DNA of 64,000 nt from positions 17,991-81,990 of the forward strand of contig CAYWEJ010000001.1 in NCBI GenBank assembly GCA_964457465.1, read 5' to 3'. Shown here one piece after another: positions 20,324 to 55,883 of the stretch. The stretch's first letter is position 1, and every line of letters starts with the position of its first letter. A program made the position numbers and the translations under genes. This DNA comes from an uncultured Gammaproteobacteria bacterium. Lineage in GTDB: Bacteria; Patescibacteriota; Microgenomatia; Levybacterales; UBA12049. The notes below the pieces were generated by a model. The model saw only the letters and a program-made list of their open reading frames with translations. It made no database searches and was not told the DNA's origin.

Positions 20324-20324
20324 G

Positions 20325-31630: not shown

Positions 31631-31638
31631 ACAGCCAC

Positions 31639-31666: not shown

Positions 31667-31674
31667 CTCAAAAT

Positions 31675-32376
31675 ATGAAAAATGCAAGAATGGAATTTAA
31701 TAAAAAAAGAGATAGTAACTCACTTGTTCCAGGACATCATTTTTTATTCAATTGGATTAAACCCTTTGTCAAAAAGAATACAAAAATTTTAGACATAGGA
31801 TGTTGGACTGGTCCTTTAGAAGAATTGTTTTCAAAAATAAATTGCCATGTAACAGGAATTGATATAGAAGACGAGCCTTTAAGTTTTGCAAGAAAAAAAT
31901 TCCCAAAATTTTCTTTTTTTAGATCATCAATTATAGATCCATTACCTTTTAAAAAAAAATCATTTGATATTGTTGCTTATTTTATGGTGATTGAGCATAT
32001 TCCAAAAGGTACTGAGTTAACTTCTTTAATTCAAATAAACAGAGTGTTAAAAAAATCAGGGATGTTATTTATGAATACTATGAATAATAATTTTATGTTT
32101 AATTTTTTTGACCCAGCATACTTCTTAGGCCATAGGCATTATTCTGAGAAAGAGTTAACAAAATTATTAAAAAAAGCAGGATTTTCTGTTAAGGAAATAA
32201 AGTATAATGGTGGTTTTTTTACAACCAGCTATATATTTTTGCTTTATTTTTTTAAACATGTTTTAAAAAGACCAGAACCTAGAAATAGAGTACTTGATAA
32301 ATTAATGGAGTTGGACTATAAAGATAGGGGATTTATTGAGATTGCAATCAGAGCAGAAAAAATAATTGATAAATGA
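31675..32376 (+). CDS. class I SAM-dependent methyltransferase
   Basis: 'ILDIGCWTGP' (motif I) and 'FDIVAYFMVIEHI'. Confidence 0.6.
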   Translation: MKNARMEFNKKRDSNSLVPGHHFLFNWIKPFVKKNTKILDIGCWTGPLEELFSKINCHVTGIDIEDEPLSFARKKFPKFSFFRSSIIDPLPFKKKSFDIVAYFMVIEHIPKGTELTSLIQINRVLKKSGMLFMNTMNNNFMFNFFDPAYFLGHRHYSEKELTKLLKKAGFSVKEIKYNGGFFTTSYIFLLYFFKHVLKRPEPRNRVLDKLMELDYKDRGFIEIAIRAEKIIDK

Positions 32377-33404: not shown

Positions 33405-33407
33405 TTC

Positions 33408-35624: not shown

Positions 35625-35675
35625 ATAGTAAATTAATTATCTAAAAATGAATCTAAAAAGGTATACTATAATTAT

Positions 35676-36347
35676 ATGAAAAAATTTGAAAAAAATTATT
35701 TTTCAGGATGGTATAAAGGTGCGGTCGGTGATTTTACAGTTAGTGATCTAAACAGATCAAAAAATTGGTTTTGGGCATGGCTTAAAAAATTAGATACTTA
35801 CGTACATGTTCAGCAAGGAAAGAATAGGGATGTGCTGGAAGTTGGTTGTTCAATTGGGGCAGTTGCTTCCCTTCTTAGTGAGAGAGGTTTTAATGTTTGG
35901 GCCTCGGATGTATCTAGATATGCTGTTAGCAAGGCGAAAAAATTAACGCCTAAAGCGCACTTCTTGACAATTGATATTCAGAAGAAGTTAAACATCAAAA
36001 AAAAGTTTAACATTATTATAGCCTTTGAGGTTGTAGAGCATTTAGAAAAACCACAGTTAGGCATTAATAATATTTTTGCAGGATTGAAGAGAGGTGGTGT
36101 TGCCGTTATTTCAACGCCATATCCATACAAGTGGAATTTCCGAGACCCTACTCATATAAATGTAAAATATCCAGATGAATGGGTGAGCATGATGAGGAAG
36201 GCTGGGTTTGTCAATGTAAAGTATTATAGGTTTACACTACTACCGTTCTTCTACCGTTTTAATAGACACTTTCAAATTATCATACCTTTTGCAATCCCAT
36301 TACCTTATGTTAACAGCCCAATATTTTTTATTGGGTACAAAAAATGA
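35676..36347 (+). CDS. class I SAM-dependent methyltransferase
   Basis: 'VLEVGCSIGAVAS' and 'IIIAFEVVEHL'. Confidence 0.6.
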   Translation: MKKFEKNYFSGWYKGAVGDFTVSDLNRSKNWFWAWLKKLDTYVHVQQGKNRDVLEVGCSIGAVASLLSERGFNVWASDVSRYAVSKAKKLTPKAHFLTIDIQKKLNIKKKFNIIIAFEVVEHLEKPQLGINNIFAGLKRGGVAVISTPYPYKWNFRDPTHINVKYPDEWVSMMRKAGFVNVKYYRFTLLPFFYRFNRHFQIIIPFAIPLPYVNSPIFFIGYKK

Positions 36348-39300: not shown

Positions 39301-39694
39301 TGATACAGATTTTGTAACAACGCTTCAAGTTGAAGACTTTTCCTTAATTAGGTTAGTAAGCCCTGAGGCATTTTTTGTTAGTCAACTTTCAAAAGGCAAC
39401 AGCTCAACAGTGGTGTATGAGAGAAAAGATCAGACAAAATATGAAGTTTCTTCAATTACTGGTAATGACATCCTCATCTTAAATGATTCTTACAGTCCAA
39501 GATGGAAAACAGATTTTCCAACGAGTATTCATTTTATGGCAAATGGCTACAGTAATGCATGGCTTGTGGAAGGGAGCAAATCAGGGGCTGTGTCGTATTC
39601 TCCACAAAGAACTGTTTTAATTGGTTTTTTGATTTCATCAGTCACGCTTTTAGTGGTAACATCATATGTATTACTTCGTAAAAAGAAAAAATGA
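36344..39694 (+). CDS. very large YfhO/AftD-like membrane protein (1116 aa): N-terminal polytopic region, large extracytoplasmic domain, C-terminal TM anchor
   Basis: About 13 TM helices in the first ~430 aa. The C-terminus carries 'LILNDSYSPRWKTDF...' (shared YfhO-like motif) and then the TM anchor 'LIGFLISSVTLLVVTSYVLL'. Confidence 0.45.
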   Translation: MIKKLFSIKNIEILFILIIGLAPLLWFSYSQVILGHDAGLPIDPQNHFQDRLFAWTERYAFGSDQTYALPGFFIHGFEALVSSIGFSLFWEQKITFIFWFLIPGVTMYFLGRYLEKKFSISHLAFPATVLYMYNHFLLQGWFVAERTKFSLYAALPLLLLILFKWQEKNIGTLKSSIYISLLFFILNGMASLPLFGGIFVCLIVYVIFYFLENLTIKGLLDLLQLIIFTGIISVLLQSYWLISYADYLLGSYSQSVVFFGGFDGVISWVKYISENTSLINLLRLQGIPEWYQNPLHPYAKDYLNNVFFIGVSMVFPILAFLPLVLFKAKKIKKYVLFFSFLALFSMIFIGGSHPPFGGLYLLFIKIIPGFLAFRTPFYKFSPALWISYSILIGLSISYFTVFLKKRSVNVSYLFYFLFAVCVIFYSYPFLTGSFFDYMKNVRTMRTNLPHYVLDFSKWTQSPENSNKRILMLPAPNPDSKIEAYTWGYWSLAPLSTLYSNASIINDSHYFSDNEKMILQDMFEAIRKNDPSWTKFIKILGIDSVVVRKDFAWNLPDSPTQSPDAYIQALHKSKIKKTKSFGEWDLYTISETSGEKINSSSKVHYFDGSGKDIGKLIEVPGFDVSIPIYASSDPSDNQDKVFNASADYIIHPACLMCDLQYKYIDPAKYSSLITRDSLFYQYTKQKNSIDMNNQDMVTVFYQIYREYLQFSRLIIEDKDQQLIIDSGKDMEKMIQLAQEKLSSAISDRKLPNEYELNDLVSVMRSVQMGLAKNIKDVSGRYNDYQVFSIIQSNIDSVISAKTRLIGLIGLTSNKASKSFIVNSKISGKFDLFYKLNDQVAKSKIQIKINGVNSEISQIDPAKDWYTQKNILLSRGKNTLEVFQSSIDFYEGDREHLVVAKPSGGCFISKTISGNVGDVVKTSFLYKTIQGDQSFYVKFIKEKDKRNYLDSEDELRPAAVNIQYTNLFVLQTHEPYVLEICNRPFANPDTDFVTTLQVEDFSLIRLVSPEAFFVSQLSKGNSSTVVYERKDQTKYEVSSITGNDILILNDSYSPRWKTDFPTSIHFMANGYSNAWLVEGSKSGAVSYSPQRTVLIGFLISSVTLLVVTSYVLLRKKKK

Positions 39695-40053
39695 AAAATA
39701 TCATTAGAGAAATTAGCTTGGTATTTAGTTACATTGAAAAAAATAGTTTTAAGATATTATTTTCAATTGGGATTTTTCTTCTTTTTTCATATATTTTTTC
39801 ATTGCCTTACATAAATCTTCTTGATGCATTTTTCGGATATTTTCCGCACGTTTTTTCTTTGATGGTGTTGTTATTTTTATTAAAACCACCTAAAAATGCT
39901 CTTTTACTAACAGCGCTTATTTTATTTTTATCGTCATATATTTTTATTGTGTTAAACATTAAATTTGTTGCAGATCTTTTAGGAACTATATGCTACTTTC
40001 TTTTAATGACATACGTAATACATGAGATAAAGAGCTCGTTTTTAGACACATGA
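39691..40053 (+). CDS. small four-TM membrane protein (GtrA/GtcA-like candidate)
   Basis: 120 aa with four hydrophobic helices. ATGA-coupled between two YfhO-like genes and two genes upstream of the GtrB-like synthase. Confidence 0.35.
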   Translation: MKNIIREISLVFSYIEKNSFKILFSIGIFLLFSYIFSLPYINLLDAFFGYFPHVFSLMVLLFLLKPPKNALLLTALILFLSSYIFIVLNIKFVADLLGTICYFLLMTYVIHEIKSSFLDT

Positions 40054-41951
40054 TTGATATACTAGGAGCAGATTGGCGTTTTTTTTGGCCTGAAAATATA
40101 CATTTTTTTTCTGGGACTCCACAAGCATGGGATGCAAGTCTTAATTCAGGTTTAGGAATTTCTGGACTCGCAACGATGTGGATAACAAGTTATCTTAATA
40201 TAACTGCGGTATTCGCAAAGATAGGCATTCCATGGTTAGTAGTCGGAATTTTTTTTTGGATTCTACCAATCTTCATTGTTTCATTTATTGCTTCTGCACT
40301 ATTATTTAAAAAAACAGTCTCAGCAGAAAAGAAGTATTATTTATTCTCAGGTTTGGTATATGCATGGAACACGTATATTCTCGGGATAGTGGGTGGAGGT
40401 CAATTGGGGGTTGGTTTGTCCTATTCAATTTTACCCTTAATTTTTTTAAGTTTTTATTTCTTACATAAAAAACCAAACTTTACTAGAAGCATTTTGTTTT
40501 CCTTAGTTTGTAGTCTTCAAATTTTATTTGATCCTCGTTTTTTCTATATTAGTTTGATTGGGCTCATCGTTTTCTATTTCGGGATATGTAACAAATTTCG
40601 CATCAACCTTAGGAATGTCATTTTTATTTTTATCGTCCCAGTTGTTATTATTTTTGTATTCAATGCATATTGGCTCATTCCGTTACTGCTGGCAACCTCT
40701 TCGTCTCTTCCTGAAAAAATTAGCACTCAAAGCAGCCTAACTTTTTTGAGTTTTGCTCGTTTTTCGCAGGCAATTTCACTTCTTCATCCCAATTGGCCAG
40801 AAAATATATTTGGAAAGGTATATTTTTTTCAGCCACAATTTCTTTTCTCACCGATACTATTAGCAGTAGGGCTTTTTTTACAGAAAAAAAATAGCAGAAT
40901 TTTTTTAAGCTATATTTTGCTTATTGTAATAGGGGTATTTATATCAAAAGGAGTTAATGAGCCTTTTGGGATAATTAATGTAATACTTTTTCACCATATC
41001 CCTGGTATGGTTTTATTTAGAGATCCCACAAAGTTCTACATATTGACTGCAATTTCATATGCAATGCTCCTCCCATTTGCTATGCAGCAGTTAAGTGCTT
41101 GGCAGAATAAAAAAAGGACATTCATAGTTTTATTAATAGTTAGTTTTTGGGTTTTACTTCCATTTTCAACTTTTTATCTTGGAAACGGATTTGAAAATTT
41201 TGTACCAAAGAAAATACCAGAAAAATATGTACTTCTTAAAAATTTTCTATTGTCAACGAAGGGTTTTTCTCGAACTTATTGGGTACCAGAATGGGAGAAG
41301 TATGGCTATTTCTCAAATAAGACTCCAGCTTTGGGAATGAGCGAATTTTTTGACAAGAAAGACGTGAAAATAAATCAGCAATCCATCCTGCCTACTCGTG
41401 ATGATTTGGCAAATCTATCTGTTAAATATGTGATTTTATCAAAAAACGATAGTAGTCTTAAGACAAACCCTGCTAGGGAGATTCTTCAGTACGAAGAAAA
41501 TAGAAAATATCTTGACTCAACTCCATGGCTTAGACATGTAACATCCTTCGACGATTTACGAGTATATAGCTTTTCTGATGGCAAAGCACATTTTTGGAGT
41601 GATAATAAAGATTTATTGATACGAACATTATCTGCTTCACAGAGTGAACACAAACTTTTGGTAAGCAATGTCAAAAAAGAAAGTACTATTATTTTCACTG
41701 AAACCTATGATCCAAATTGGGAGATGATTGTTAACGGCATATCATTCCGCTCTAGTCCCTATAGAAATCAATATAATAAATTTACTCTTAATAAAGAGGG
41801 TAATTATGAAATAGTAATTTCATATAGGCTTCAAAACGTTGTTCAGAAAACGATAATTGCTAGCAACTCTATAATTTTTCTTCTATTCCTTTATGTAGTT
41901 CTTTCTCTCCAATTCCCAAAGCTAAAGATACGTAGCTTTCGAAAGAAGTAG
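40050..41951 (+). CDS. YfhO-like polytopic membrane protein (GT-C-type candidate)
   Basis: 633 aa with many TM helices. C-terminal 'IIFTETYDPNWEMIVNGISF...' motif plus a terminal TM anchor. Confidence 0.45.
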   Translation: MIDILGADWRFFWPENIHFFSGTPQAWDASLNSGLGISGLATMWITSYLNITAVFAKIGIPWLVVGIFFWILPIFIVSFIASALLFKKTVSAEKKYYLFSGLVYAWNTYILGIVGGGQLGVGLSYSILPLIFLSFYFLHKKPNFTRSILFSLVCSLQILFDPRFFYISLIGLIVFYFGICNKFRINLRNVIFIFIVPVVIIFVFNAYWLIPLLLATSSSLPEKISTQSSLTFLSFARFSQAISLLHPNWPENIFGKVYFFQPQFLFSPILLAVGLFLQKKNSRIFLSYILLIVIGVFISKGVNEPFGIINVILFHHIPGMVLFRDPTKFYILTAISYAMLLPFAMQQLSAWQNKKRTFIVLLIVSFWVLLPFSTFYLGNGFENFVPKKIPEKYVLLKNFLLSTKGFSRTYWVPEWEKYGYFSNKTPALGMSEFFDKKDVKINQQSILPTRDDLANLSVKYVILSKNDSSLKTNPAREILQYEENRKYLDSTPWLRHVTSFDDLRVYSFSDGKAHFWSDNKDLLIRTLSASQSEHKLLVSNVKKESTIIFTETYDPNWEMIVNGISFRSSPYRNQYNKFTLNKEGNYEIVISYRLQNVVQKTIIASNSIIFLLFLYVVLSLQFPKLKIRSFRKK

Positions 41952-41991: not shown

Positions 41992-42930
41992 ATGATTAGT
42001 GTAGTTGTGCCCGTTTACAATGAAGAAGAAAGTGTTGAGCACTTTTTTGAGGCCTTAATTACAGAATTGCAAAAAATCAAAGAGGATTTTGAGATATTGT
42101 TTATTGACGATGGGTCTAAAGATAGATCGTTTGAGATTTTAAGTAACATTGTTAAAAAGAATAAAAAAGTTTCACTTTTTTCCTTAAGAAGAAACGTTGG
42201 CAAAGCTGAGGCTTTATCATTAGGTTTTCTTAAGGCTAAAGGAGATATTATTGTGACTCTAGATGCTGATCTTCAAGACCAACCGAGCGAAATAAAAAAT
42301 CTGCTATCTGTTTTTAGACAAGGATTTGATGTTGTTTGCGGATGGAGAAAAAACAGAAAAGACAAATCAAGAATGAAAATTATTTCCAAACTATTTAATC
42401 TGCTTGTAGGTACGATTTTTGAAGTAAAAATCCATGATTACAATTGTGGTCTGAAACTCTATTCAAGTGAAGCCGCGAAAAGTCTAAGGCTATATGGTGG
42501 GCTTCATAGATTTATACCGATTTTAGCACACGAGCAAGGATTTAGTGTAACTGAGGTAGTTGTAGATCACAAACCAAGAGAGTTTGGGAAATCGAAGTAC
42601 GGATTCTCTAAAATTTTTAAGGATGTTCCAGATATGTTCACGATGATGTTTTTAGTGAAATACATGAAGCAACCTTTGCATTTTTTTGGAACGATTGGAG
42701 GGCTGTTAATAGTATCTGGTTTTATTATCTTAGGCTATCTATCAGTTCTTAGGTTTTTCGGAGAGAAGATAGGAACACGGCCGCTTTTCTTATTTGGTAT
42801 TTTATTATTTCTCGCAGGAATACAAATTTTCTTTACAGGATTTCTTGCAGAACTGTTAATTAGTATTACTCATAGAAAAGATTCTGTGCATTTTCCGATA
42901 TCATATGACAGTTCAAAAGATGGTGAATAA
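41992..42930 (+). CDS. GT2 polyprenol-phosphate glycosyltransferase with two C-terminal TM helices (GtrB/CsbB/ArnC/Ppm1-like)
   Basis: 'ISVVVPVYNEEESV', 'LFIDDGSKDRS', 'RRNVGKAEALSLGF', 'TLDADLQD' (DXD), 'DYNCGLKLY' and two C-terminal helices. Confidence 0.75.
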   Translation: MISVVVPVYNEEESVEHFFEALITELQKIKEDFEILFIDDGSKDRSFEILSNIVKKNKKVSLFSLRRNVGKAEALSLGFLKAKGDIIVTLDADLQDQPSEIKNLLSVFRQGFDVVCGWRKNRKDKSRMKIISKLFNLLVGTIFEVKIHDYNCGLKLYSSEAAKSLRLYGGLHRFIPILAHEQGFSVTEVVVDHKPREFGKSKYGFSKIFKDVPDMFTMMFLVKYMKQPLHFFGTIGGLLIVSGFIILGYLSVLRFFGEKIGTRPLFLFGILLFLAGIQIFFTGFLAELLISITHRKDSVHFPISYDSSKDGE

Positions 42931-42939: not shown

Positions 42940-43149
42940 ATGAAACCACAAGACCTTATTTTTTTAAGTATTATGTTATTATTGCTTTTTAGTAAAAATC
43001 ACAAAATATTTGCTGCACTTGCTATTGGGTTGTTGATAATTGCTATACCTCTTTTTGAATTCTGGAAATTTTTTACTGCAGAGCGCATGGTGTTGTATTC
43101 TGCAATTTGCATCGTTATCTCAGTTATATTTCTTCAAAAAAAGAAATAG
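42940..43149 (+). CDS. small two-TM membrane protein of unknown function
   Basis: 69 aa, hydrophobic, directly after the GtrB-like gene. Confidence 0.3.
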   Translation: MKPQDLIFLSIMLLLLFSKNHKIFAALAIGLLIIAIPLFEFWKFFTAERMVLYSAICIVISVIFLQKKK

Positions 43150-43153
43150 TATT

Positions 43154-43693
43154 ATGAAGATTGGAATAGACATCTCACAACTTACGTATCAGCATACAGG
43201 TGTTGCAAAATATCTTGAAGGCTTGCTCTCAGCATTGATTAAGGATAAGGATGGAAATGAATATGTGCTGTTTTACTCTTCATTAAGAGGAAATCTTTCT
43301 CCAGTTTTTGAAAAAAAATTGGATCTGCCTAATGTTACTATCAAAAAGTTTAAAATTCCTCCATTACTCCTTGATCTTATATGGAACAAATTGCATATTT
43401 TTCCGATAGAGACATTTATTGGAAATGTTGATATTTTCCTTACTTCAGACTGGACAGAGCCTCCAGCCCGCAAAGCCCTAAAGGCAACCATTCTATATGA
43501 TTTGATCATATACCTCTTCCCTGAGGAGTCAACAGAAAAAATTGTTCTAACCCAAAAGAGGAAGCTCTCGTGGGTTAAGAAAGAGTCAAATGCTATTTTT
43601 TGTATTTCTGATGCGACAATGAAAGATGCTATAGAAATTTTAAAAATAAGCAGAGACAAACTCCACGTTATTCATCCAGGATTCAAAATATGA
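43154..43693 (+). CDS. GT4 N-terminal (acceptor) domain only: a truncated paralog of the next gene, possibly a pseudogene or a split glycosyltransferase
   Basis: 'MKIGIDISQLTYQHTGVAKY...LHVIHPGFKI*'. It ends exactly where the full-length paralog 43690-44817 continues ('IHVVYPGIKEV...'). Its stop TGA overlaps the next ATG. Confidence 0.45.
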   Translation: MKIGIDISQLTYQHTGVAKYLEGLLSALIKDKDGNEYVLFYSSLRGNLSPVFEKKLDLPNVTIKKFKIPPLLLDLIWNKLHIFPIETFIGNVDIFLTSDWTEPPARKALKATILYDLIIYLFPEESTEKIVLTQKRKLSWVKKESNAIFCISDATMKDAIEILKISRDKLHVIHPGFKI

Positions 43694-44817
43694 AGATAGG
43701 TATTGATGCAAATGAGGCAAATGTCGAAAAAAAAGTGGGAATTAGTGAGTATGTCTATGAGCTATTATTAAAATTATATCCACTAGCATCATCCAATGAT
43801 AATTTCATAATATATCTAAAAGATCAACCAATCGGGTTCCCACAAACATCAGCTTATTGGACTTACAAGATATTTGGACCTAAGAAACTTTGGACACAAT
43901 TTGCTCTTCCATTAAAACTTTTTACTCATAGAAAAAAACCTGATATTTTCTTCTCTCCAGCACATTATGCTCCAAGAATTTCGCCAGTCCCAACAGTAAT
44001 ATCCATTATGGATCTCGCTTTTTTTCATTTTCCTGATTATTTTACAAAAAAGGATCTTACCCAACTACATAGATGGACAAATTATTCAGTTAAACAAGCA
44101 AAGGCTATTATTACGATAAGTGAAGCGTCTAAAAATGATATAATCAGTTTGTATCACATTAATAAAGAAAAAATTCACGTTGTCTATCCAGGAATTAAAG
44201 AAGTTAAATCTTTAGATCCACATATTTATTCTATGGAAGAATTACAAAGCAGATATAATATTTCCAAGAACTATCTCCTTTTTGTTGGCACTCTGCAGCC
44301 ACGAAAGAATATTGCTCGTTTAATAGAGGCATTCTCAAAAGTTGTGGCAAAGGAAGGTGTGAGTACTGAGTTGCAACTTGTTGTTGTTGGCAAGAAAGGT
44401 TGGAAATATGAAGAGATTTTAAACGCACCTCGAAAATTTGGCGTTGAAGATAGAGTAAAATTTCTTGATTTTGTTGATGATAGTAATTTGGTTTTACTCT
44501 ATAAAAATGCACAGATTTTTGTCTGGCCTAGTCTCTACGAGGGTTTTGGTCTTCCTATTCTTGAAGCAATGCAAAATAATTGCCCTGTTATTACAAGTAA
44601 TATAAGCAGTATGCCTGAGGCGGGTGGTGATGCAGCGTTATATGTTGATCCTATGGACGTGGACGATATTGCCAAAAAGATTCAAAAAGTACTTTCTGAT
44701 AAGAAGTTGAGATTACATATGATAGAAAAAGGAAATAAGCATATTAAGAAATTTAGTTGGGATCATGCTGCAAAGAAGACTCTGGAAGTTCTGCGGGAAG
44801 TCGCTCATAATAGATAG
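43690..44817 (+). CDS. GT4 family glycosyltransferase
   Basis: 'MKIGIDANEANVEKKVGISEYV' and 'EGFGLPILEAMQNNCPVITS'. Confidence 0.7.
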   Translation: MKIGIDANEANVEKKVGISEYVYELLLKLYPLASSNDNFIIYLKDQPIGFPQTSAYWTYKIFGPKKLWTQFALPLKLFTHRKKPDIFFSPAHYAPRISPVPTVISIMDLAFFHFPDYFTKKDLTQLHRWTNYSVKQAKAIITISEASKNDIISLYHINKEKIHVVYPGIKEVKSLDPHIYSMEELQSRYNISKNYLLFVGTLQPRKNIARLIEAFSKVVAKEGVSTELQLVVVGKKGWKYEEILNAPRKFGVEDRVKFLDFVDDSNLVLLYKNAQIFVWPSLYEGFGLPILEAMQNNCPVITSNISSMPEAGGDAALYVDPMDVDDIAKKIQKVLSDKKLRLHMIEKGNKHIKKFSWDHAAKKTLEVLREVAHNR

Positions 44818-44818: not shown

Positions 44819-45424
44819 ATGAAAGATAAGAGTGGCACAGCATTGTCTGCAAATGAGGCAATAAGGAGAGGAGCTAATAGAATGTCAGCTATCTCACTTG
44901 AGGCGACCAATTTCGTACTTCATATAATAGGTATGATCCCTTCTCATCACCTTCGACGATTTTTTTACCGTTTGGGAGGTATGGAGATTGGGAGTGGATC
45001 AAGTATTCATATGGGTATGAGAGTGTATGACTCATCCCATATTGTTGTTGGTAAAGATACTATTATTGGAGAGGGTGCAGTGCTTGATGGGAGAGCAGAA
45101 CTTCATATTGGGAATCATGTTGATATAGCATCAGAAGTAATGATTTATAACTCTGAACATAATATCCATGCGGAGGATTTTGCTGGTAAGGACGGCGTTG
45201 TAAAAGAGAAAGTTGTTATTGAAGATTATGTATTTATAGGTCCTCGTGCAATTATTTTACCTGGTGTGACTGTAGGAAAAGGAGCAGTTATTGGGGCAGG
45301 GGCTGTCGTTACAAAAGATGTAAAACCATTTTCAATTGTAGCAGGCGTACCTGCTAAAGAGATAGGCGAGAGAAGTAATAAAGAACCTTCTTATACGTTA
45401 GGGAGGGCTGCATGGTTTCGATAA
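44819..45424 (+). CDS. hexapeptide-repeat (LbH) sugar O/N-acetyltransferase
   Basis: In-frame ATG 1 nt after the upstream stop. Imperfect hexapeptide repeats 'IGEGAVLDGRAELHIGNHVDIASEVMIYNSEHN...IGPRAIILPGVTVGKGAVIGAGAVV'. Confidence 0.7.
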   Translation: MKDKSGTALSANEAIRRGANRMSAISLEATNFVLHIIGMIPSHHLRRFFYRLGGMEIGSGSSIHMGMRVYDSSHIVVGKDTIIGEGAVLDGRAELHIGNHVDIASEVMIYNSEHNIHAEDFAGKDGVVKEKVVIEDYVFIGPRAIILPGVTVGKGAVIGAGAVVTKDVKPFSIVAGVPAKEIGERSNKEPSYTLGRAAWFR

Positions 45425-46260
45425 TAATACTTTCGTATAACAGGAGTGATCTATTAAGTGCTTGCCTTGCATCATTATATAAAGATATCAAGACTGATTT
45501 TGAGGTAATTGTAGTTGACAACGCTTCAAAAGACGATAGTGTTGCAGTTGTCAAAAGAAATTTTAAGAAGGTTAATCTTATTGAAAATAATGAAAATTCT
45601 GGGTTTGCAAAAGGTTGTAATTTAGGTGCAAAGCAAGCTAAAGGTAATTTTTTATTATTTCTCAATAGCGACGCATCAGTTATTGACGATCCACTACCAG
45701 ATCTCTTAAGAACATTTGAGCAATATCCTGAAGCTGCTGTTGTAGGGGGACTTCTTCTTAATCATGATCATACTCTGCAACGTTCTTTCGGTGGATTTTA
45801 TTTCCTTAAAAATGTTTTTAGAATGCTATTTCAAGGAGAAAAAGGTGAACTTGAAAAATATAAAAGTACCACAGTTCTTGAGGTAGATTGGGTGAGTGGT
45901 GGTTTTATGATGGTCAGAAAAGATGTGTTTGATAAGGTTAAAGGGTTTAACGAATCATATTTCATGTATATAGAAGATATGGATTTATGTTATAGAATTA
46001 AGAAAATAGGTTCAAAAATATATGTCAATCCCAATGCAAAAGTTGAGCATTTAGGGCAAGGTAGTAGCAATAAGACATTTGCAATTGTACACATTTATAA
46101 AGGTCTGCAAATTTTTTATAAACAACAGCGCAGTACCTTTGAATATTACTTAGTAAAATGCATGCTTGCCATCAAAGGTATGCTATCGCTTGTGATAGGG
46201 GTTCTTACTTTCAATAAGTATCTTATTCGTACGTACATCGGAGCACTTAGGACATTATGA
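45412..46260 (+). CDS. GT2 family glycosyltransferase
   Basis: 'VSIIILSYNRSDLL', 'VVDNASKDDS' and 'YIEDMDLCYR'. Confidence 0.7.
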   Translation: MVSIIILSYNRSDLLSACLASLYKDIKTDFEVIVVDNASKDDSVAVVKRNFKKVNLIENNENSGFAKGCNLGAKQAKGNFLLFLNSDASVIDDPLPDLLRTFEQYPEAAVVGGLLLNHDHTLQRSFGGFYFLKNVFRMLFQGEKGELEKYKSTTVLEVDWVSGGFMMVRKDVFDKVKGFNESYFMYIEDMDLCYRIKKIGSKIYVNPNAKVEHLGQGSSNKTFAIVHIYKGLQIFYKQQRSTFEYYLVKCMLAIKGMLSLVIGVLTFNKYLIRTYIGALRTL

Positions 46261-49200
46261 AAATAATTTCATATATCAAAAATAATTTTCTATTGTTATT
46301 GACGCTTTTCTTTTTGGCTTTCATACCTTTATATCCAAAGCTTCCTCTTTTAGACATCAAACATACATGGGTCTATATTCGTATCGAAGATGTGCTCGTT
46401 GCATTTGCGTGGGGTGTCTTCTTTGTCTCCTATTTCCGTAGAAAAGCTACCCTTAAGACGCCTTTAACATTACCGATAGCTGTGTTTTGGGCGATTGGCG
46501 CATTGGCAACTCTAAGCGGGGTTATATTTATTTTTCCACGTCTTGAAGGGGTTTTTCCAAATTTGGCATTTTTAAGTTTTTTAAGACGAGTTGAGTATCT
46601 TTCCCTCTTTTTTCTAGCGTTTTCATCCATTAAGAATAAAAATGCTATTAATCCTATCGTCACAACTCTTTCCTTGACATTATCGGCTGTTTTTATTTAT
46701 GGCATTGGGCAAAGAATGTGGGGTTTTCCTGCGTTTTTGACAATGAATGAAGAATTCGCAAAAGGAATTCCTCTTCGCTTATCAGCACTTGCAAGGATAC
46801 CATCAACTTTTGCTGGGCATTACGATCTTGCTGCGTATCTTATCCTTCTTATTCCTATCATGGGAAGTATGATTTTTGGTTATAAAAAATGGTATCTCAA
46901 AATAATTTTCTTTTTGCTAGGAGTAGGTGGTCTTATTTTACTTCTTATGACTGCATCTAGGGTCTCATTTGCTGTTTATCTTGTATCTGTAGCGTTTCTT
47001 CTTATTTTGCAAAAACAAAAAAAATATATTATTCCTGTATTTATTCTTAGTATTTTATTGTTGAAGTCTTTTACCGGTCTTTCTCAGCGTTTTTCTCAAA
47101 CATTTACCCAAGTTGATCTTATTGTTGATTCTCGTACAGGAAAAGCCATTGGAATAGCATCAGAAATCGGAGGAGATTCGATTACTATTGAAGACAAGCA
47201 GTCGACAGGTGAAAACCTTCCAGCGGGATCAAAATATATTAACTTTCCATCTTCACAAGGACAGCAGCTGGACTCCCAAATTGTCTATAAAAAACTCAAA
47301 CCTGGTGGAGAGGGAGAGGAGATAATTACTAAAGCTGGAAAAGTAATAGTTAAGAAAGCATTTGCATATGATGTATCTTTTACAACTCGTTTTCAAGGTG
47401 AGTGGCCAAGAGCAATAGAGGCGTTTAAGAGAAATATTTTACTGGGGAGTGGGTATGGGTCGATTAGCCTTGCAACAGACAATAGCTTTTTAAGAATGCT
47501 TGGCGAAACGGGGCTCCTTGGATTTTTCTCTTTTGTTCTTATTTTTATCTTTATTGCAATCTATCTATTTAGAATTGTTGATGATATCGATGACAAAAGA
47601 ATTAGAGCGCTTGTATATGGTGTGTTAGCAGGATCGTTTGGTCTTGCATTAAATGCCATTCTTATTGATGTATATGAAGCATCAAAGGTTGCATTTGTAT
47701 TATGGACTGTTGTTGGTGCAACTCTTGGTCTTGCAAAACTATATCAGAAGAAAGATATTAAGTATTTTGTAGAAATGAAGAGGATTTTTACCTCAACTCC
47801 TGCTTTGATTGTAATTATTGTTGTTGCTGGGTTTTTGTTTTTTTCACGATCTCTTTCAAATTATTTTGCAGGCGATGATTTTACATGGCTTAGGTGGGCA
47901 GCTGATTGCCATCGGTTATTAAGTTCTACTGAGCAGTGTTCGTCAATTTTTAGTACTATTAGTCATTATTTTTCTCATTCTGAGGGATTTTTCTATCGTC
48001 CAGGGACAAGGTCGTATTTTCTTTTGGCTTATCCTGTCTTTGAGCTTTTCCCTTTACCATTCCATGTTATATCTTTACTGCTTCATCTATCGGCGACTCT
48101 TTTTGTATTTTTTATTCTTAAAAAGTTATTGCAACATACGCTTCTTGGTTTTGTCGGAGCTATATTTTTTCTATTTTTAAGTATTCATGCAGAGGCAGTT
48201 TATTGGATATCAGTAACAGGACATTTGATTGCAACTAATTTTATATTCATGTCATTCCTTTTCTTTATGTATTGGGTTGAGACTAAAAAGAAATTCCTTT
48301 TTATTTTTTCTTCATTTGCGGTAATGATCGCAACATTTTTTCATGAATTTGGAACAATAGGATCATTTCTTTTGATTGCTTATGATTTGATTTATCTTAC
48401 ACCATCAGTCAAAAATCTTTTTAGAAAATGGTACTACCTTCTCTTGATTCTTCCTGTGGTAATGTACTATGTCTTGAGGACTCAGGCATCAAGCGTATGG
48501 TTTCAAGGAGATTATTCATACAATTTTTCCATGCTACCTTTAAATGTGCTAGGCAACAGTATCGGCTATCTTATTACTAGCATCTTAGGACCTGTTTTTA
48601 TCCCATCATATTCTGCAATTCGTCTTTACAGTGGGCAGCATATTGGAGCGAGTGTTATTGTAGCACTTGCTCTTTGCATCGCTCTTGCTTTTATTGGTTA
48701 TAGAAATAAAGAGAAAATTTCAAAGACATCATGGAAATCGCTATTTCTAGGTGCAGCGTTATTTATTATTCCTCTCTCTCCGTTTTTGGGTCTTGGAAAC
48801 CTCAGTCCTCGATATGCTTATACAGGATCAATCGGAGTAGTATTCATTTTGGCTTACTTAATGAAAGGACTACTTATGACAAAAACTAAAAGAAGAAAAG
48901 TTCTCGTAGGTGGACTTGTTATTATCAGTTCACTTTTCATTCTTTTTCATATAAAACAATTAGACAAGAGTAACAACGAATGGAGGAAGGCTGGAGAAAT
49001 TACAAATAGTGCACTTGTTGGTATCAACTATGCATATGTAGTGAATAGCACATTGCAACCAGGTTCAACGTTTTACTTTGTTGACGTTCCAATTAAGTAC
49101 GCTGATGCTTGGGTATTTCCTCAAGGATTAGAGGATCCTTTGTGGTTCTCATTCCAGAACACAGCTCCTCAAATTAAAAACGCTTCATCAGAGAAAGAGG

Positions 49201-49334
49201 CTCTTTTAATGGTAAAGAATGATCCTGTTCGTATAAAGGCATTTAAGTTCCAAAAGGACGGCTCTTTGGTTGAGATAAATCTACCAATACCTACTACTAC
49301 CACCGTAACAACGGTAAATTCTTATGCGAAATAA
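46257..49334 (+). CDS. fusion protein: N-terminal Wzy_C (O-antigen ligase / PglL-like) domain plus a second polytopic GT-C-like domain and a C-terminal soluble domain (1025 aa)
   Basis: The N-terminal half has 'TFAGHYDLAAYLIL', 'MTASRVSFAVYLVS' and 'LGSGYGSISLATDNSFLRMLGETGLLGF', which match the conserved loop motifs of the O-antigen ligase/polymerase family. The C-terminal half begins with the acidic loop 'FAGDDFTWLRW' and has about 10 more TM helices. Confidence 0.55.
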   Translation: MKIISYIKNNFLLLLTLFFLAFIPLYPKLPLLDIKHTWVYIRIEDVLVAFAWGVFFVSYFRRKATLKTPLTLPIAVFWAIGALATLSGVIFIFPRLEGVFPNLAFLSFLRRVEYLSLFFLAFSSIKNKNAINPIVTTLSLTLSAVFIYGIGQRMWGFPAFLTMNEEFAKGIPLRLSALARIPSTFAGHYDLAAYLILLIPIMGSMIFGYKKWYLKIIFFLLGVGGLILLLMTASRVSFAVYLVSVAFLLILQKQKKYIIPVFILSILLLKSFTGLSQRFSQTFTQVDLIVDSRTGKAIGIASEIGGDSITIEDKQSTGENLPAGSKYINFPSSQGQQLDSQIVYKKLKPGGEGEEIITKAGKVIVKKAFAYDVSFTTRFQGEWPRAIEAFKRNILLGSGYGSISLATDNSFLRMLGETGLLGFFSFVLIFIFIAIYLFRIVDDIDDKRIRALVYGVLAGSFGLALNAILIDVYEASKVAFVLWTVVGATLGLAKLYQKKDIKYFVEMKRIFTSTPALIVIIVVAGFLFFSRSLSNYFAGDDFTWLRWAADCHRLLSSTEQCSSIFSTISHYFSHSEGFFYRPGTRSYFLLAYPVFELFPLPFHVISLLLHLSATLFVFFILKKLLQHTLLGFVGAIFFLFLSIHAEAVYWISVTGHLIATNFIFMSFLFFMYWVETKKKFLFIFSSFAVMIATFFHEFGTIGSFLLIAYDLIYLTPSVKNLFRKWYYLLLILPVVMYYVLRTQASSVWFQGDYSYNFSMLPLNVLGNSIGYLITSILGPVFIPSYSAIRLYSGQHIGASVIVALALCIALAFIGYRNKEKISKTSWKSLFLGAALFIIPLSPFLGLGNLSPRYAYTGSIGVVFILAYLMKGLLMTKTKRRKVLVGGLVIISSLFILFHIKQLDKSNNEWRKAGEITNSALVGINYAYVVNSTLQPGSTFYFVDVPIKYADAWVFPQGLEDPLWFSFQNTAPQIKNASSEKEALLMVKNDPVRIKAFKFQKDGSLVEINLPIPTTTTVTTVNSYAK

Positions 49335-50757
49335 TAGTAAGTTCTTTTTGTTGATACTAATGCTTTTCTTTGGTCTTTTTGTAAGGCTTTATGAATTCCA
49401 TAAACCTATCGCTGACTGGCATAGTTGGAGGCAGGCAGATACAGCATCTGTATCAAGGAATTTTACTGAGAAAGGTGTTGATATGCTCCATCCTACTTTT
49501 GGTGATATATCAAACGTTCCATCAGGGAGAGATAATCCGAACGGTTATCGCTTTGTTGAGTTTCCTATCTATAACCTTTTTCAAGCCACTTTATTTAATG
49601 TTTTGGGACATTTCACACTTGAAGAGTGGGGAAGATTAGTTAGTATTTTTTCGTCACTATTTGCAGGATATTTCCTTTATCTTATCGTTAAGAAGTATTC
49701 TGGTGAGCGGATTGGATTATCAGTTTTGTTTTTTTATCTATTTGTTCCGTTTAATATCTATTATAGTCGGACAATCCTTCCCGACCCCTCAATGGTAATG
49801 GCTATCTTAGGAGGAATTTATTTTTTTGGTCTTTGGGTAGATTCTAAAACTAAAAGTATATTATTTTTTATTCTAGCAGCTGTGTTTACAGGTGCGGCAA
49901 TTTTAATAAAACCCTATGCACTTTTTTATATTTTTGTGTTTTTCTCAATAACAGCTTCTAAACAATTGGAAATACTAAAGAATAAAAAACTCCTTATTTT
50001 TGGAGCAACTGTAATTGCACCATTTCTGTTTTGGAGATTGTGGATGCTTCAGTACCCGGAAGGTATTCCTGCAAGTAATTGGCTTTTTAACGGGAACGGC
50101 ATTCGATTCAAGCCATCTTATTTTCGTTGGATTGTTTATGAAAGATTAGTGAAGCTTATTTGTGGTTTTGCCGGTGTAGTTTTTTTAATTAAAGGAATTT
50201 ATGAAGTCTTAAGAGAAAAGAAAATCCAATTATACTCATCATTTATTCTTAGTGCCTTTATGTATCTTATTGTTGTTGCAACTGGAAATGTACAGCACGA
50301 TTATTATCAAATTGTCATTATGCCTTCGATTGCAATATTGTTAGGATTGGGTTTCTCAGCGTTAACATCCTTAAGAGCTTTGCAGCGGTTGGCACTTGGA
50401 TGGTTACTTGCAGTTATTATTACAATATTCTCTTTCTTCTTTGCTTGGGAAGAGGTCAAAGAATATTATTACATAAATAACCCATCTATCGTTGAGGCTG
50501 GGCGTGCAGTCGATAGGCTAACTCCAAAAAACTCATTGATAATTGCTAGTTATAATGGCGATACCTCATTTTTATACCATACAAATAGAAGCGGATGGGC
50601 TAGTTTTCAAAATTCAATCCCAGAGCTGATCAAGAAGGGGGCAGACTATCTTGTTTTCGCAAATCCAAATGAATCAGAGTTAAATTTCGCTTCAGAATAT
50701 AAAATTGTAGAGCAGAAAAAAAACTACATAATATACGATCTTCATCAGAAACCATGA
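49324..50757 (+). CDS. polytopic membrane protein, ArnT/PMT-like (GT-C-like candidate)
   Basis: 477 aa. The first loop has 'ADWHSWRQADTASVSRNF', followed by about 11 TM helices and a short soluble C-terminus. Confidence 0.45.
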   Translation: MRNNSKFFLLILMLFFGLFVRLYEFHKPIADWHSWRQADTASVSRNFTEKGVDMLHPTFGDISNVPSGRDNPNGYRFVEFPIYNLFQATLFNVLGHFTLEEWGRLVSIFSSLFAGYFLYLIVKKYSGERIGLSVLFFYLFVPFNIYYSRTILPDPSMVMAILGGIYFFGLWVDSKTKSILFFILAAVFTGAAILIKPYALFYIFVFFSITASKQLEILKNKKLLIFGATVIAPFLFWRLWMLQYPEGIPASNWLFNGNGIRFKPSYFRWIVYERLVKLICGFAGVVFLIKGIYEVLREKKIQLYSSFILSAFMYLIVVATGNVQHDYYQIVIMPSIAILLGLGFSALTSLRALQRLALGWLLAVIITIFSFFFAWEEVKEYYYINNPSIVEAGRAVDRLTPKNSLIIASYNGDTSFLYHTNRSGWASFQNSIPELIKKGADYLVFANPNESELNFASEYKIVEQKKNYIIYDLHQKP

Positions 50758-53053: not shown

Positions 53054-54119
53054 TAAATGGGGAGGAGCTGAGAGAGTGCTTCTTGCCTTGCATGAATTAT
53101 TTCCCGATGCTCCGCTTTTTACCTCGGTTCATAATAAGAAGAAAGCCAAGTGGATTAGAGATTTATCAATTACCCCATCTTTTCTTCAGGACTTTCCGTT
53201 CGCAAAAGATGCTCATGAACTTTATCCTCTTTTAATGCCTGCAGCATTTGAGCAGTTTAATCTTGATGATTTTGATGTCGTTATTTCAGTAACCAGCGAA
53301 TCTGCAAAAGGGATTATTACAAAACCTCACACAATTCACATTTGCTATTGTCTAACTCCTACTCGATATTTATGGAGTGGGTATGAAGAATATTTTAATA
53401 AAAAAGTTATTAGGTTTCTTTCGTATCCGGCTACATGGTATTTGAGAAAATGGGATAAAATTGCCTCAAAAAGACCTGATGTCTTTGTTGCAATTTCAGA
53501 AGAGGTCAATAGAAGAATAAAAACCTATTACCAGTTAGAATCAGAAATTATTCATCCTCCTGTAGATCTATTTTTACATAGACAGCAGAAAAAGACAGTG
53601 CAAAAAAAGAATTATTTTTTAGTAGTTTCTAGGCTCGTCTCTTATAAAAGAATTGATATTGCGATAGATTCATGCAATCAGCTAAAGATTCCTCTAAAGA
53701 TAGTTGGTGTAGGAAGTCAGTATCATGCCTTGAGAAAGAAGGCAGGTCCTACGATAGAGTTTTTAGGAGAAGTATCTGACGAGAAGTTAAGACTGCTATA
53801 TGAGGAGGCACAAGCACTTCTTTTCCCTGGCTTTGAAGATTTTGGGATAGTTATGGTTGAGGCGCTTGGTCATGGTACACCAGTAATCGCCTATAACAAA
53901 GGTGGGGCAAAAGATATTGTCACTCATAAAAAATCAGGTATTCTCTTCTCAGATCAAACAAGTAGATCATTGTCGCAAGCTATTGGAGAATTCAAAAAAT
54001 CGAATTTCAAAAGATCAGATTTATATAAAGATGCATTCCGATTTAAGAAAGAAATTTTTTTTAAAAAAATCTTAAAACTTGTCAACGACAGATTGCAAAA
54101 CTCATCAAAGAGATTATAA
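53022..54119 (+). CDS. GT4 family glycosyltransferase
   Basis: 'MKVALVYDRINKWGGAERV' and 'FEDFGIVMVEALGHGTPVIAY'. Overlaps the upstream gene by 32 nt in a different frame. Confidence 0.65.
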   Translation: MKVALVYDRINKWGGAERVLLALHELFPDAPLFTSVHNKKKAKWIRDLSITPSFLQDFPFAKDAHELYPLLMPAAFEQFNLDDFDVVISVTSESAKGIITKPHTIHICYCLTPTRYLWSGYEEYFNKKVIRFLSYPATWYLRKWDKIASKRPDVFVAISEEVNRRIKTYYQLESEIIHPPVDLFLHRQQKKTVQKKNYFLVVSRLVSYKRIDIAIDSCNQLKIPLKIVGVGSQYHALRKKAGPTIEFLGEVSDEKLRLLYEEAQALLFPGFEDFGIVMVEALGHGTPVIAYNKGGAKDIVTHKKSGILFSDQTSRSLSQAIGEFKKSNFKRSDLYKDAFRFKKEIFFKKILKLVNDRLQNSSKRL

Positions 54120-54132
54120 TAATAATGGATTT

Positions 54133-55215
54133 ATGAAAATTCTTATTTTTGCCGGTGGAGTTGGCTCAAGACTTTGGCCTTTGTCGAGAAAAAACACACC
54201 TAAGCAGTTTGGCCAAATAATTGGTGATAAATCCACTCTTCAACAGACGATTGATAGATTAAGTCCTGAATTTAGTCCAGAAGATATTTATATTGCAACA
54301 GGTATTCAATATAAAGATACTGTTACTGCTCAGCTTAACAAAATTCCGGAGGAAAATTTTATTTTTGAACCTACTATGAGGGATGTCGGTCCGGCAATCG
54401 GTCTCAATGCATTTTTACTTGCCAAATTGCATCCTGACGAACCTATTGCAATTCTTTGGAGTGATCATATGGTAAAAAATCACGTTATGTTTCGACATGT
54501 ACTGAGGCTGGCTGAGGAAAGTATTACGAAATATGATGCAAATTTTGTTTTTATAGGACAGGAGCCACGATTTGCAAATCAAAATTTAGGATGGATTCAG
54601 CTTGGAGAAAAGATTAAGGAGGAGAATGGTGCTGAAATTTACGAATTCAATAAGCTTCTTTATAGGCCGAAACTTGAACAAGCTGAAGATTATTTCTCCT
54701 CTGAAAATTATGTATGGAACTTAGGCTACTTCGTAACTACACCACGATTTTTAGTCTCGTTATTTCAAGAACATGCACCGGAAATGTACGAAAGATTACT
54801 AGAGATTCAGCAGGCATATCAGACACCCGAATTTGAGTCTGTTGTTCAAGATATATACCCTACCCTTGAAAAAATTAGCTTTGACGATGCGATTCTGGTC
54901 AAGATGTCATCAAGAAATGTGTTTGTTATTTCTACTGATCTTGGCTGGAGCGATATTGGAGCTTGGGATGCGCTTAAAGAGGCATTAGCAGAATCTTCTG
55001 AGGAAAATATCACAAAAGGTAAAGTGCTTTTGGAGGACACAAGAGATTCCCTTGTTTTTAATTATACTGACCAGCTATCAGTAGGTATAGATCTTGCAGA
55101 AATGTTAGTTATTAATACTGATGATGTATTATTGGTTTGTCCAAAAAGTTCAGTTCCGAAAATAAAGAAGTTAGTTGAGAATTTGAAAGGTACTTCTCAT
55201 GAACATTTAGCATAG
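54133..55215 (+). CDS. manC: mannose-1-phosphate guanylyltransferase-like sugar nucleotidyltransferase
   Basis: In-frame ATG. 'MKILIFAGGVGSRLWPLSRKNTPKQF' is a classic ManC/GMP N-terminus. About 360 aa. Confidence 0.7.
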   Translation: MKILIFAGGVGSRLWPLSRKNTPKQFGQIIGDKSTLQQTIDRLSPEFSPEDIYIATGIQYKDTVTAQLNKIPEENFIFEPTMRDVGPAIGLNAFLLAKLHPDEPIAILWSDHMVKNHVMFRHVLRLAEESITKYDANFVFIGQEPRFANQNLGWIQLGEKIKEENGAEIYEFNKLLYRPKLEQAEDYFSSENYVWNLGYFVTTPRFLVSLFQEHAPEMYERLLEIQQAYQTPEFESVVQDIYPTLEKISFDDAILVKMSSRNVFVISTDLGWSDIGAWDALKEALAESSEENITKGKVLLEDTRDSLVFNYTDQLSVGIDLAEMLVINTDDVLLVCPKSSVPKIKKLVENLKGTSHEHLA

Positions 55216-55217: not shown

Positions 55218-55883
55218 ATGCCATACGTAGAAATTAAAAAAAGTAAGTGGCATGAGTTTGCGAAGAGGTTTATTGATATAGCTGCAGCCCTCGTAATTCT
55301 GTTGTTATTTCTTCCGATTATCATAGCAGTTGCAGTTGCAATAAAAGTTGATTCTCAAGGCCCTGTATTAGCAGACACTCCAGAAAGAGTTGGCAAGAAT
55401 GGAAGACTTTTTAAAATGTTTAAATTTCGTTCAATGATACCTAATGCACACGAAATTTTACGAAAAGATCCTCAGTTTGCAGCCCTCTATGATCAATATA
55501 AGAAAGGTAGCTATAAACTAAAAAATGACCCACGAATTACCAGGGTAGGTCGATTTATCAGAAAGCACTCATTAGATGAAGTGCCTCAGTTTATTAATGT
55601 TCTCAGGGGGGATATGAGTATTGTTGGGCCAAGAGCTTATTATCCTGATGAGCTTCGTGAGCAACAAAAAAAGTATCCGGACACACAGGATGCAGTTAAG
55701 ATAGTGCTATCAGTAAGGCCAGGAATTACAGGATACTGGCAGGTTTCTGGGAGAAGTGAGATTAATTTTGACAAGAGAATTGAGATGGATGCCGACTATG
55801 TAAGAAAAAGATCAATACTTTACGATTTGATGATTATTTTTCTTACTCCTGGTGCGATGCTAACAGGAAAAGGTGCAAGGTAA
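55218..55883 (+). CDS. small (PglC/WbaP C-domain type) polyprenyl-phosphate hexose-1-phosphate transferase: the initiating phosphoglycosyltransferase
   Basis: Single N-terminal TM helix, then 'LFKMFKFRSM' and 'VRPGITGYWQVSGRSE' (bacterial sugar transferase signature). Confidence 0.8.
   Translation: MPYVEIKKSKWHEFAKRFIDIAAALVILLLFLPIIIAVAVAIKVDSQGPVLADTPERVGKNGRLFKMFKFRSMIPNAHEILRKDPQFAALYDQYKKGSYKLKNDPRITRVGRFIRKHSLDEVPQFINVLRGDMSIVGPRAYYPDELREQQKKYPDTQDAVKIVLSVRPGITGYWQVSGRSEINFDKRIEMDADYVRKRSILYDLMIIFLTPGAMLTGKGAR

Follow-up and report, generated by a model that had tools for sequence, protein, structure and literature searches.

A WaaL/Wzy-type module fused to a PMT/ArnT-type module in a single polytopic protein of Microgenomates bacteria, a candidate enzyme of surface glycan assembly

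Ligases of the WaaL type (CAZy family GT121), with the Cupriavidus metallidurans enzyme as structural reference (7TPG/7TPJ), bind the pyrophosphate of undecaprenyl pyrophosphate (Und-PP) through two arginines while a histidine activates the acceptor (PMC10920833). An Asp or Glu aligns with this His in the SEDS proteins and in most families of inverting Wzy-type polymerases, which belong to the same CAZy clan, GT-C1 (PMC10920833). WadA of Brucella and Mesorhizobium combines a GT121 ligase with a GT25 glycosyltransferase, the latter supplying the final sugar of the core, onto which the O-antigen is then placed (PMC10920833). PglL and PglS enzymes, on their part, are marked by the domains PglL_A (PF15864) and Wzy_C_2 (PF11846) beside the ligase domain (PMC12645811). 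Here we describe a gene within a 64-kb stretch of contig CAYWEJ010000001.1 (assembly GCA_964457465.1), referred to as the window and of ~33% G+C, whose product carries a WaaL/Wzy-type module (module 1) and a PMT/ArnT-type module (module 2) in one chain; it is termed the fusion gene below, and coordinates of all features are given in Table 1.

Fusion of a GT-C_B (WaaL/Wzy-type) module to a GT-C_A (PMT/ArnT-type) module is the firm conclusion of this work; architecture, folds, topology, residue invariance, the pattern of fused and split genes and synteny are what the analysis shows. It agrees with an earlier note on this DNA, which had described a Wzy_C-type module joined to a GT-C-type one whose first outer loop is acidic and whose C-terminal domain is soluble, and the motifs quoted there are all present (AGHYDLAAYL, amino acids (aa) 186–195; LGSGYGS...ETGLLGF, aa 395–422; GDD, aa 539–541). 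Beyond this, the gene probably encodes a bimodular glycan-assembly enzyme with both active sites facing the outside of the cytoplasmic membrane and a surface glycan as product, a reading to which we assign a probability of about 0.6.

Compared with WaaL, the fusion protein has an Asp instead of the His, an additional 95-aa insertion and an additional motif between transmembrane helices (TM) 5 and 6. WaaL itself has no second glycosyltransferase and its structure (7TPG) shows no detectable sequence-level similarity to the fusion, whose host should have no lipid A-core acceptor. With the inverting Wzy-type polymerases and SEDS proteins it shares conserved Arg residues and, where WaaL has its His, an acidic residue (Asp or Glu), all located on the outer face (PMC10920833). 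The likeness to WadA lies in the covalent joining of a ligase-type module to a glycosyltransferase of the same pathway; in WadA, however, the joined enzyme is of the soluble GT-A kind, depends on nucleotide sugars and is situated at the cytoplasmic side, whereas the partner here is a polytopic GT-C enzyme with an outward site, presumably dependent on a lipid-phosphate-linked sugar (lipid-P-sugar), and the acceptor is lipopolysaccharide (LPS) in WadA and not LPS here. From PMT and ArnT (GT39 and GT83, GT-C_A) the fusion protein differs by the family motifs NYFxGDDFTWLRW, C...C, FFYRPG, GDYSYN and GLGN..RY, while its module 2 lacks MIR domains as well as a direct PMT or PMT_2 match, and sits downstream of a Wzy_C module.

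The sole Pfam match of the fusion protein at a reporting threshold of E ≤ 0.1 is, as the earlier note had anticipated, Wzy_C (PF04932) at aa 223–427 (E 3.4e-8), which covers profile positions 4–149 of 149 and lies above the gathering score (33.8 against 31.7 bits). The same PF04932 label is precomputed on most homologs. In a full-length AlphaFold model built from a 60-sequence alignment, with a predicted local distance difference test score (pLDDT) of 81.4 and a predicted template modelling score (pTM) of 0.82, module 1 is predicted to adopt the WaaL fold of 12 TM, its large outer loop being located close to the C-terminus, between TM9 and TM10. After WaaL, the next structural matches of module 1 are FtsW and RodA, and no Wzy-type polymerase is found among its fold-search matches. 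Sequence searches of the PDB with the whole protein, a full-length profile, a C-half profile and the aa 372–500 motif segment gave nothing relevant, matches to ribosomal protein uL3 (E 1.5) and a P450 (E 1.2) being dismissed as chance level, and the NCBIfam scan gave no match for the fusion protein or its PMT_2 neighbour. The Wzy_C match is interrupted by a beta-rich insertion, modelled at pLDDT 49–67 and conserved at G295, G299, G318, E319, G361 and D372. This insertion has no Pfam match at E ≤ 5 and no PDB relative (the uL3 match again being at chance level); it may be an acceptor- or glycan-binding domain.

Residue conservation, counted over 120 aligned family sequences, highlights a set of module 1 positions invariant in 120/120, namely R180, D190, R235, R378, D408, E417, D471 and K477. 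Two of these, R235 and R378, are candidates for the WaaL Arg pair by their order and location. R235 alone could be aligned, and weakly (E 0.016), with R215 ('TQTR215'), which is essential in E. coli WaaL; in this hhalign comparison of the N-module profile with E. coli K-12 WaaL the global alignment failed and the local one was weak, just the R235/R215 motif being aligned. R378 is located on an amphipathic outer helix (H376–392), inside Wzy_C profile positions 80–149, and its order and motif suggest correspondence to the second WaaL Arg.

The acceptor-activating position differs. Sub-segment Pfam scans fit aa 403–427 to Wzy_C profile positions 125–149 without a gap, and D408 therefore stands at position 130; on the same profile, residues 205–354 of E. 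coli K-12 WaaL map to positions 6–146 and residues 283–355 to positions 79–147. Where WaaL has its His (H313 in 7TPG; H338 in E. coli K-12), the family thus has Asp in 120/120, the two motifs reading DNSFLRMLGETGLLGFF in the fusion and HNEIIEAGSLKGLMGIF in WaaL. Module 1 accordingly combines a WaaL fold with the acid-base signature of polymerase-type relatives. The WaaL His had been sought by the earlier note in the AGHYDLAAYL loop; H188 of that loop instead belongs to a separate, family-specific site between TM5 and TM6, in which R180 and D190 are conserved in 120/120 and H188 in 118/120. This loop, FPAFLTMNEEFAKGIPLRLS..R..TFAGHYD, has no alignable WaaL counterpart and is modelled poorly (pLDDT <50 for aa 166–186).

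Module 2 (aa 514–1010), modelled alone (pLDDT 84.1, pTM 0.86), is predicted to have a GT-C membrane core, and protein O-mannosyltransferases are among its closest structural relatives. The acidic pair D540-D541 lies at the outer face, 6 residues past the first helix of the module (H514–534) and thus in the first outer loop, where GT-C_A enzymes (PMT, ArnT, STT3/PglB, AftA, ALG) carry their catalytic acidic residues, and is regarded as the candidate catalytic pair. D541, C551, C561 and P582 are invariant in 120/120 sequences and D540, R581, E646, E697 and D752 in 119/120, with R852 also among the invariant residues of the module; C551 and C561, both in the outer loop, are consistent with a disulfide. 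In the C-terminal domain P945, A951, W952, F954, P955, G957, D960 and W963 are invariant. The WWDxG signature of the oligosaccharyltransferases STT3, PglB and AglB (GT66) is absent, the protein containing no WWD or any WW. A module 2 profile detects two paralogs in the window: the open reading frame (ORF) 33408–35624 (E 1.7e-12), itself with a sub-threshold PMT_2 match, and ORF 2907–4586, a Pfam PMT protein (hmmsearch E 6.9e-9), which hhalign aligned to module 2 with 92.6% probability over 169 core columns. The hhalign comparison of the C-module with the adjacent PMT_2 protein was not significant (0.65%). Distant standalone relatives of module 2 have PMT or PMT_2 Pfam matches, and its superfamily is very large, an exhaustive representative search giving 53,520 representatives at E ≤ 1e-3 and only 209 at E ≤ 1e-30.

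Short basic loops alternate along the protein (RRKATLK, KNK, YKK, QKQKK, LYQKKDIK, KK, NKEK and TKTKRRK). By the positive-inside rule, this alternation places the invariant motifs of both modules and the C-terminal domain outside and the linker in the cytoplasm, so that both predicted active sites face the outside of the cytoplasmic membrane; the invariant Cys pair in the first outer loop of module 2 fits this placement.

The fusion is widespread. A word-indexed search returned 1786 relatives at E ≤ 1e-3, of which 120 were listed; among the matches listed, 118/120 measure 997–1131 aa and 2 are fragments. With one genome scanned per species, a relative occurs in at least 586 species of the Microgenomates branch within the Candidate Phyla Radiation (CPR); the earlier note's view of the fusion as unusual does not hold, since at least 586 species representatives carry it. 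Within the best 80 of the at least 586 species, nearly all matches are full-length fusions, a few being cut by contig ends, and they come from Levy-, Gottesman-, Roizman- and Woesebacteria together with metagenome-assembled genomes (MAGs) titled 'Gammaproteobacteria'. Close homologs that bear names are those of Candidatus Levybacteria and Patescibacteria (CPR). Dozens of species-representative MAGs with the fusion gene are titled 'uncultured Gammaproteobacteria bacterium' (L009, L015–L018, L024–L026 and many others), evidently a placeholder or a wrong taxonomic label.

Locus-level counts were taken over 87 loci. The comparison of fused and split genes in relatives, which the earlier note had proposed as a check, found the modules fused in 84/87 loci. 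At two loci, L006 and L007, the modules are encoded by neighbouring genes that overlap slightly within one operon, and the break falls exactly on the cytoplasmic linker. The split at L006 is convincing, the linker being extended on both sides and the overlap being of the ATGA type. At L007 the split (7986–8020) falls on the A-rich run GAGAAAAAAGCAAAG and a 1-nt indel restores the fused frame, so it may be a frameshift and was counted as doubtful; a fault in the assembly, a genuine frameshift mutation and a slippery site are all conceivable explanations. Because the modules are fused in most genomes and encoded by adjacent genes in a few, they are expected to act consecutively on the same product. 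Both are under strong purifying selection. Three proteins first taken for standalone C-modules (P0121, P0122 and P0126) proved to be truncated gene calls that start inside the last helix of module 1, P0121 being confirmed at a contig edge. True standalone module 2 paralogs do exist, the copy at L089 lacking an adjacent Wzy_C gene and being preceded by an ortholog of the upstream glycosyltransferase (GT) of family GT2.

One locus raises the question of whether module 2 is always catalytic. At L090 (GCA_964406795.1, CAYOTA010000010.1, 2984–8512) a 1061-aa fusion ortholog keeps module 1 intact while the fused module 2, still of full length and in frame, no longer has its catalytic motifs (DD to RD, RP to PP, E646 to Q and D752 to F). 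This is what would be expected if module 2 were mainly a non-catalytic scaffold or substrate-binding partner, that is a pseudo-glycosyltransferase, a reading we consider very improbable for the family: all candidate catalytic residues of module 2 are invariant in the other 119 sequences, and standalone versions occur without an adjacent Wzy_C gene, as at L089. L090 itself has an intact 503-aa standalone paralog of module 2, two genes downstream of the fusion and after a GT2 gene, which explains relaxed selection on the fused copy. The locus looks like a case of subfunctionalisation in which the fused copy was retained as a scaffold; more speculatively, the GT-C module might also have a structural role outliving catalysis.

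The fusion gene is closely packed between its neighbours. The start of the fusion gene overlaps the stop of the upstream GT2 gene by 4 nt (ATGA), which suggests translational coupling of the two, and its own stop overlaps the start of the downstream PMT_2 gene by 11 nt. Across loci, at ~46% identity, the conserved order runs ArnC-like GT2, GT4 N-terminal half, GT4, WcaF-like acetyltransferase, GT2 and fusion, followed by PMT_2, GT4, GT2 or GT4, GT4, GT4, ManC, phosphoglycosyltransferase, DUF4012 and RecO. The ArnC-like GT2 matches NCBIfam ArnC over its full length (E 1.4e-54, below the equivalog cut-off) and PgfS (E 4e-44), and a GT2 of ~310 aa occupies the same place in L001 and L003. The upstream-GT2 ortholog also lies directly 5' of the standalone GT-C gene in L089, L090 and L091. 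The GT4 N-terminal half is a gene of 217 aa (43040–43693) with a Glyco_transf_4 domain only, next to a complete GT4 gene (43690–44817); half-genes of 176–189 aa are kept in L001, L003, L007 and L090, and it is therefore not a pseudogene fragment.

We infer substrates, step order and final acceptor as follows. Module 1 probably binds, by analogy with WaaL, an Und-PP-linked oligosaccharide via R235 and R378. Synthesis of this oligosaccharide would begin with the PglC-size transferase and continue with the operon's GT4 and GT2 enzymes, after which it would be flipped. An acceptor hydroxyl activated by D408 would then receive it from module 1 by inverting transfer, which would make module 1 either a ligase or a Wzy-type polymerase. 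Module 2, on the model of its characterised relatives, probably uses a polyprenyl-phosphate-linked monosaccharide made by the ArnC/GtrB-like GT2, and D540-D541 would be catalytic. The modules may be ordered in two ways: either module 2 adds a sugar that module 1 then uses as its acceptor, following the logic of WadA, or the chain that module 1 builds by polymerising repeat units is decorated by module 2.

In the second of these orders module 1 would be an inverting Wzy-type repeat-unit polymerase, module 2 would add side-branch or capping sugars, and attachment of the polymer, to wall or lipid, would fall to a separate enzyme. Polymer decoration outside the cell by a GT-C protein together with a GtrB-like GT2 is an established pattern (GtrABC, CsbB/YfhO, GacL). 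The Asp at the His position, common to SEDS proteins and most inverting polymerase families of GT-C1 where the GT121 ligases have His (PMC10920833), leans toward such polymerase-like chemistry, and a Wzx-like flippase and an initiating transferase are present in the window. However, the operon contains no chain-length regulator or LCP ligase and holds very many glycosyltransferases, features that lean toward en-bloc ligation. We regard the polymerase interpretation as less likely than not. The DUF4012 protein (also in L003, and with no NCBIfam match) was rejected as a chain-length regulator because it has a single N-terminal TM only. As for the missing step of attachment or export, this protein is a candidate.

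The CPR is regarded as a clade of monoderm bacteria (bioRxiv 10.1101/2021.05.31.446380), which makes the role of a classical lipid A-core ligase unlikely, as the earlier note had also judged; no lpx or core genes occur in the 64-kb window, and the product is taken to be a surface glycan of a monoderm CPR cell and not LPS. The earlier note had favoured an O-oligosaccharyltransferase of the PglL/PilO type; in this model, which extends to WsaB-like enzymes, the Wzy_C module would move an Und-PP-linked glycan en bloc to Ser, Thr or Tyr of a protein at the cell surface, for instance an S-layer protein or a pilin. Neither PglL_A nor Wzy_C_2, found in PglL and PglS enzymes, is detected at E ≤ 0.1. 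An invariant Asp, not a His, stands at the acceptor-activating position, and the corresponding His is also essential in PglL. The fusion thereby differs from PglL, PglS and TfpO, and no pilin or S-layer gene, or other acceptor gene, is linked to it in the conserved operon.

The pgl-like pathway that the same note had read from the locus stands in part. The window does contain a PglC-size transferase, GT4 enzymes, a DegT aminotransferase and a Wzx-like flippase; a bacillosamine-type pathway is not supported, the genes assigned to it being of other types. The hexapeptide enzyme is WcaF-like (O-acetyltransferase family), just its C-terminal repeats resembling NeuD/PglD; the aminotransferase, PseC/ArnB-like at scores below cut-offs, is of a generic kind and has a WecD-like acyltransferase as its partner, and ORF 22055–23029 is GalE. 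These amino-sugar genes are, moreover, 17–24 kb away and outside the conserved core operon. The protein-glycosylation role is for these reasons unlikely, and nothing points to a protein acceptor, though the structural relatives of module 2 include protein O-mannosyltransferases.

Several observations weigh against a two-site glycan-assembly enzyme as described here. For module 1, the margin of the Wzy_C score over its threshold is narrow and falls to 31.3 bits once the insertion is removed, and sequence methods give no link to the solved WaaL (7TPG). The His of the WaaL motif 'HLH338N' reaches profile position 130 only if the last 17 residues of the mapped WaaL stretch are free of gaps, and a Smith-Waterman comparison of the motif region with E. 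coli WaaL was not significant, its score being reached by 42/500 shuffles, so that the equivalence of D408 and the WaaL His rests on Pfam profile coordinates. For module 2, aa 501–1025 give no direct Pfam match (PMT PF02366, PMT_2 PF13231) even at E ≤ 5, and the motif losses at L090 mean that a fused module 2 can persist without catalysis. As to the pathway, donor identities are guessed from neighbouring genes, mannose being possible given the conserved ManC, and the nearest flippase gene is 21 kb from the fusion, with none within 10 kb in L001–L004.

Nearly the entire window is one glycan-assembly cluster, in which GT2 and GT4 enzymes are numerous; a scan of the window for tRNA and Rfam features found none. 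The cluster holds ~15 polytopic membrane proteins (488–21785, 29130–41951 and 49324–50757), five or six of them consecutive at 10758–21785. The annotated ones are GT-C-like and comprise six PMT or PMT_2 proteins, one YfhO, one PTPS_related/YfhO-like and one AftD-like protein. Four further polytopic ORFs, 15657–17501, 17505–19514, 29130–30629 (minus strand) and 40050–41951, have no Pfam match even at E ≤ 5, and these lenient scans did not reveal a separate Wzy polymerase among them. A sub-cluster at 22055–29120, ~17–24 kb upstream of the fusion gene, contains GalE, GT4, a Wzx-like flippase, GT2, GT4, a PseC/ArnB-like aminotransferase and a WecD-like N-acyltransferase; it lies outside the operon conserved around the fusion in relatives, and looks like a module for a sugar of the 4-acetamido-4,6-dideoxyhexose type and not for di-N-acetylbacillosamine.

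Table 1. Location of the fusion gene, its parts and neighbouring genes in the window (position 1 is the first letter of the 64-kb stretch).
Feature	Position	Strand	Description
Whole fusion gene	46257..49334	+	ORF, ATG to TAA; 1025 aa; bimodular integral-membrane glycosyltransferase; ~25 TM helices
N-terminal module, aa 1-494	46257..47738	+	12 TM helices; WaaL/Wzy_C fold, GT-C_B class
TM5-TM6 outer loop, aa 156-190	46722..46826	+	Family-specific near-invariant motif FPAFLTMNEEFAKGIP...R180...TFAGH188YD190
R235, 'TASR' motif, outer end of TM8	46959..46961	+	Candidate first pyrophosphate-binding Arg; 120/120
Beta-rich insertion, aa 281-375 (95 residues)	47097..47381	+	Inside large outer loop of Wzy_C module; strands E283-371
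R378 in 'TTRFQGEWP'	47388..47390	+	Candidate second pyrophosphate-binding Arg; 120/120
D408-N409	47478..47483	+	Asp at position of WaaL acceptor-activating His; Asp in 120/120
Basic cytoplasmic linker, aa 495-513, LYQKKDIKYFVEMKRIFTS	47739..47795	+	Joins modules; placed by topology analysis
C-terminal membrane module, aa 514-928	47796..49040	+	GT-C_A fold, PMT/ArnT-like
Module 2 first outer loop, aa 535-598	47859..48050	+	D540-D541 acidic pair, C551/C561 pair, FFYR581P582 motif
C-terminal extracytoplasmic alpha/beta domain, aa 929-1010	49041..49286	+	Invariant 'AWVFPxGxxDxxW'; strands and helices at 938-1006 in models
GalE	22055-23029		Above equivalog cut-off
Wzx-like flippase	24110-25372
AftD-like protein, 1116 aa	36344-39694
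ArnC/GtrB/PgfS-like GT2, two C-terminal TM helices (~235, ~265)	41992..42930	+	Candidate polyprenyl-phosphate sugar synthase for GT-C donors
Upstream GT2, 282 aa, one C-terminal TM	45412..46260	+	Pfam Glycos_transf_2; ortholog in 78/87 loci
Downstream PMT_2 GT-C protein, 477 aa	49324..50757	+	Pfam PMT_2 E 1.1e-9; homolog in 82/87 loci
ManC-like GDP-mannose pyrophosphorylase	54079-55215	+	End of conserved operon; kept in L001, L003, L007
PglC-size polyprenyl glycosylphosphotransferase, initiating	55218-55883	+	End of conserved operon; kept in L001, L003, L007
DUF4012 protein, 658 aa	55898-57874		One N-terminal TM, large outer domain; between initiating transferase and recO

Both kinds of module were known already, as was the fusion of a ligase to a glycosyltransferase in WadA. 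What is new is the presence of two polytopic GT-C-class enzymes in one chain, a WaaL fold with an invariant Asp, and a family-specific insertion and set of motifs with near-universal syntenic presence in a major CPR lineage. A keyword literature search on the fusion architecture and on CPR envelope glycosylation found no description of the fusion. As a database label, 'O-antigen ligase family protein' misleads here, given that the clade is regarded as lacking LPS and that half of the protein is ignored by it.

The CPR accounts for a large share of bacterial diversity, is mostly uncultured and has an essentially uncharacterised cell surface, which would be the interface for host attachment. Strong synteny, presence in hundreds of Microgenomates species and invariant candidate catalytic residues together make the fusion likely to be central to a major surface glycan. 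It acts as a 'Rosetta stone' that ties WaaL/Wzy-type to PMT-type GT-C enzymes, and suggests an undescribed coupled mechanism with two donors, a lipid-pyrophosphate-linked (lipid-PP) glycan and a lipid-P-sugar. More speculatively, and with odds against it at present, the fusion might be the core of an unrecognised, Microgenomates-specific envelope-glycan machine in which a GT-C_B enzyme for lipid-PP-oligosaccharide is physically coupled to a GT-C_A enzyme for lipid-P-monosaccharide, so that at the outer membrane face one primes, caps or branches what the other takes as its substrate. The ~15 polytopic, mostly GT-C-like proteins of the cluster fit such a machine, whose product would be a lipoglycan or wall polymer as complex as the mycobacterial lipomannan and lipoarabinomannan (LM/LAM).

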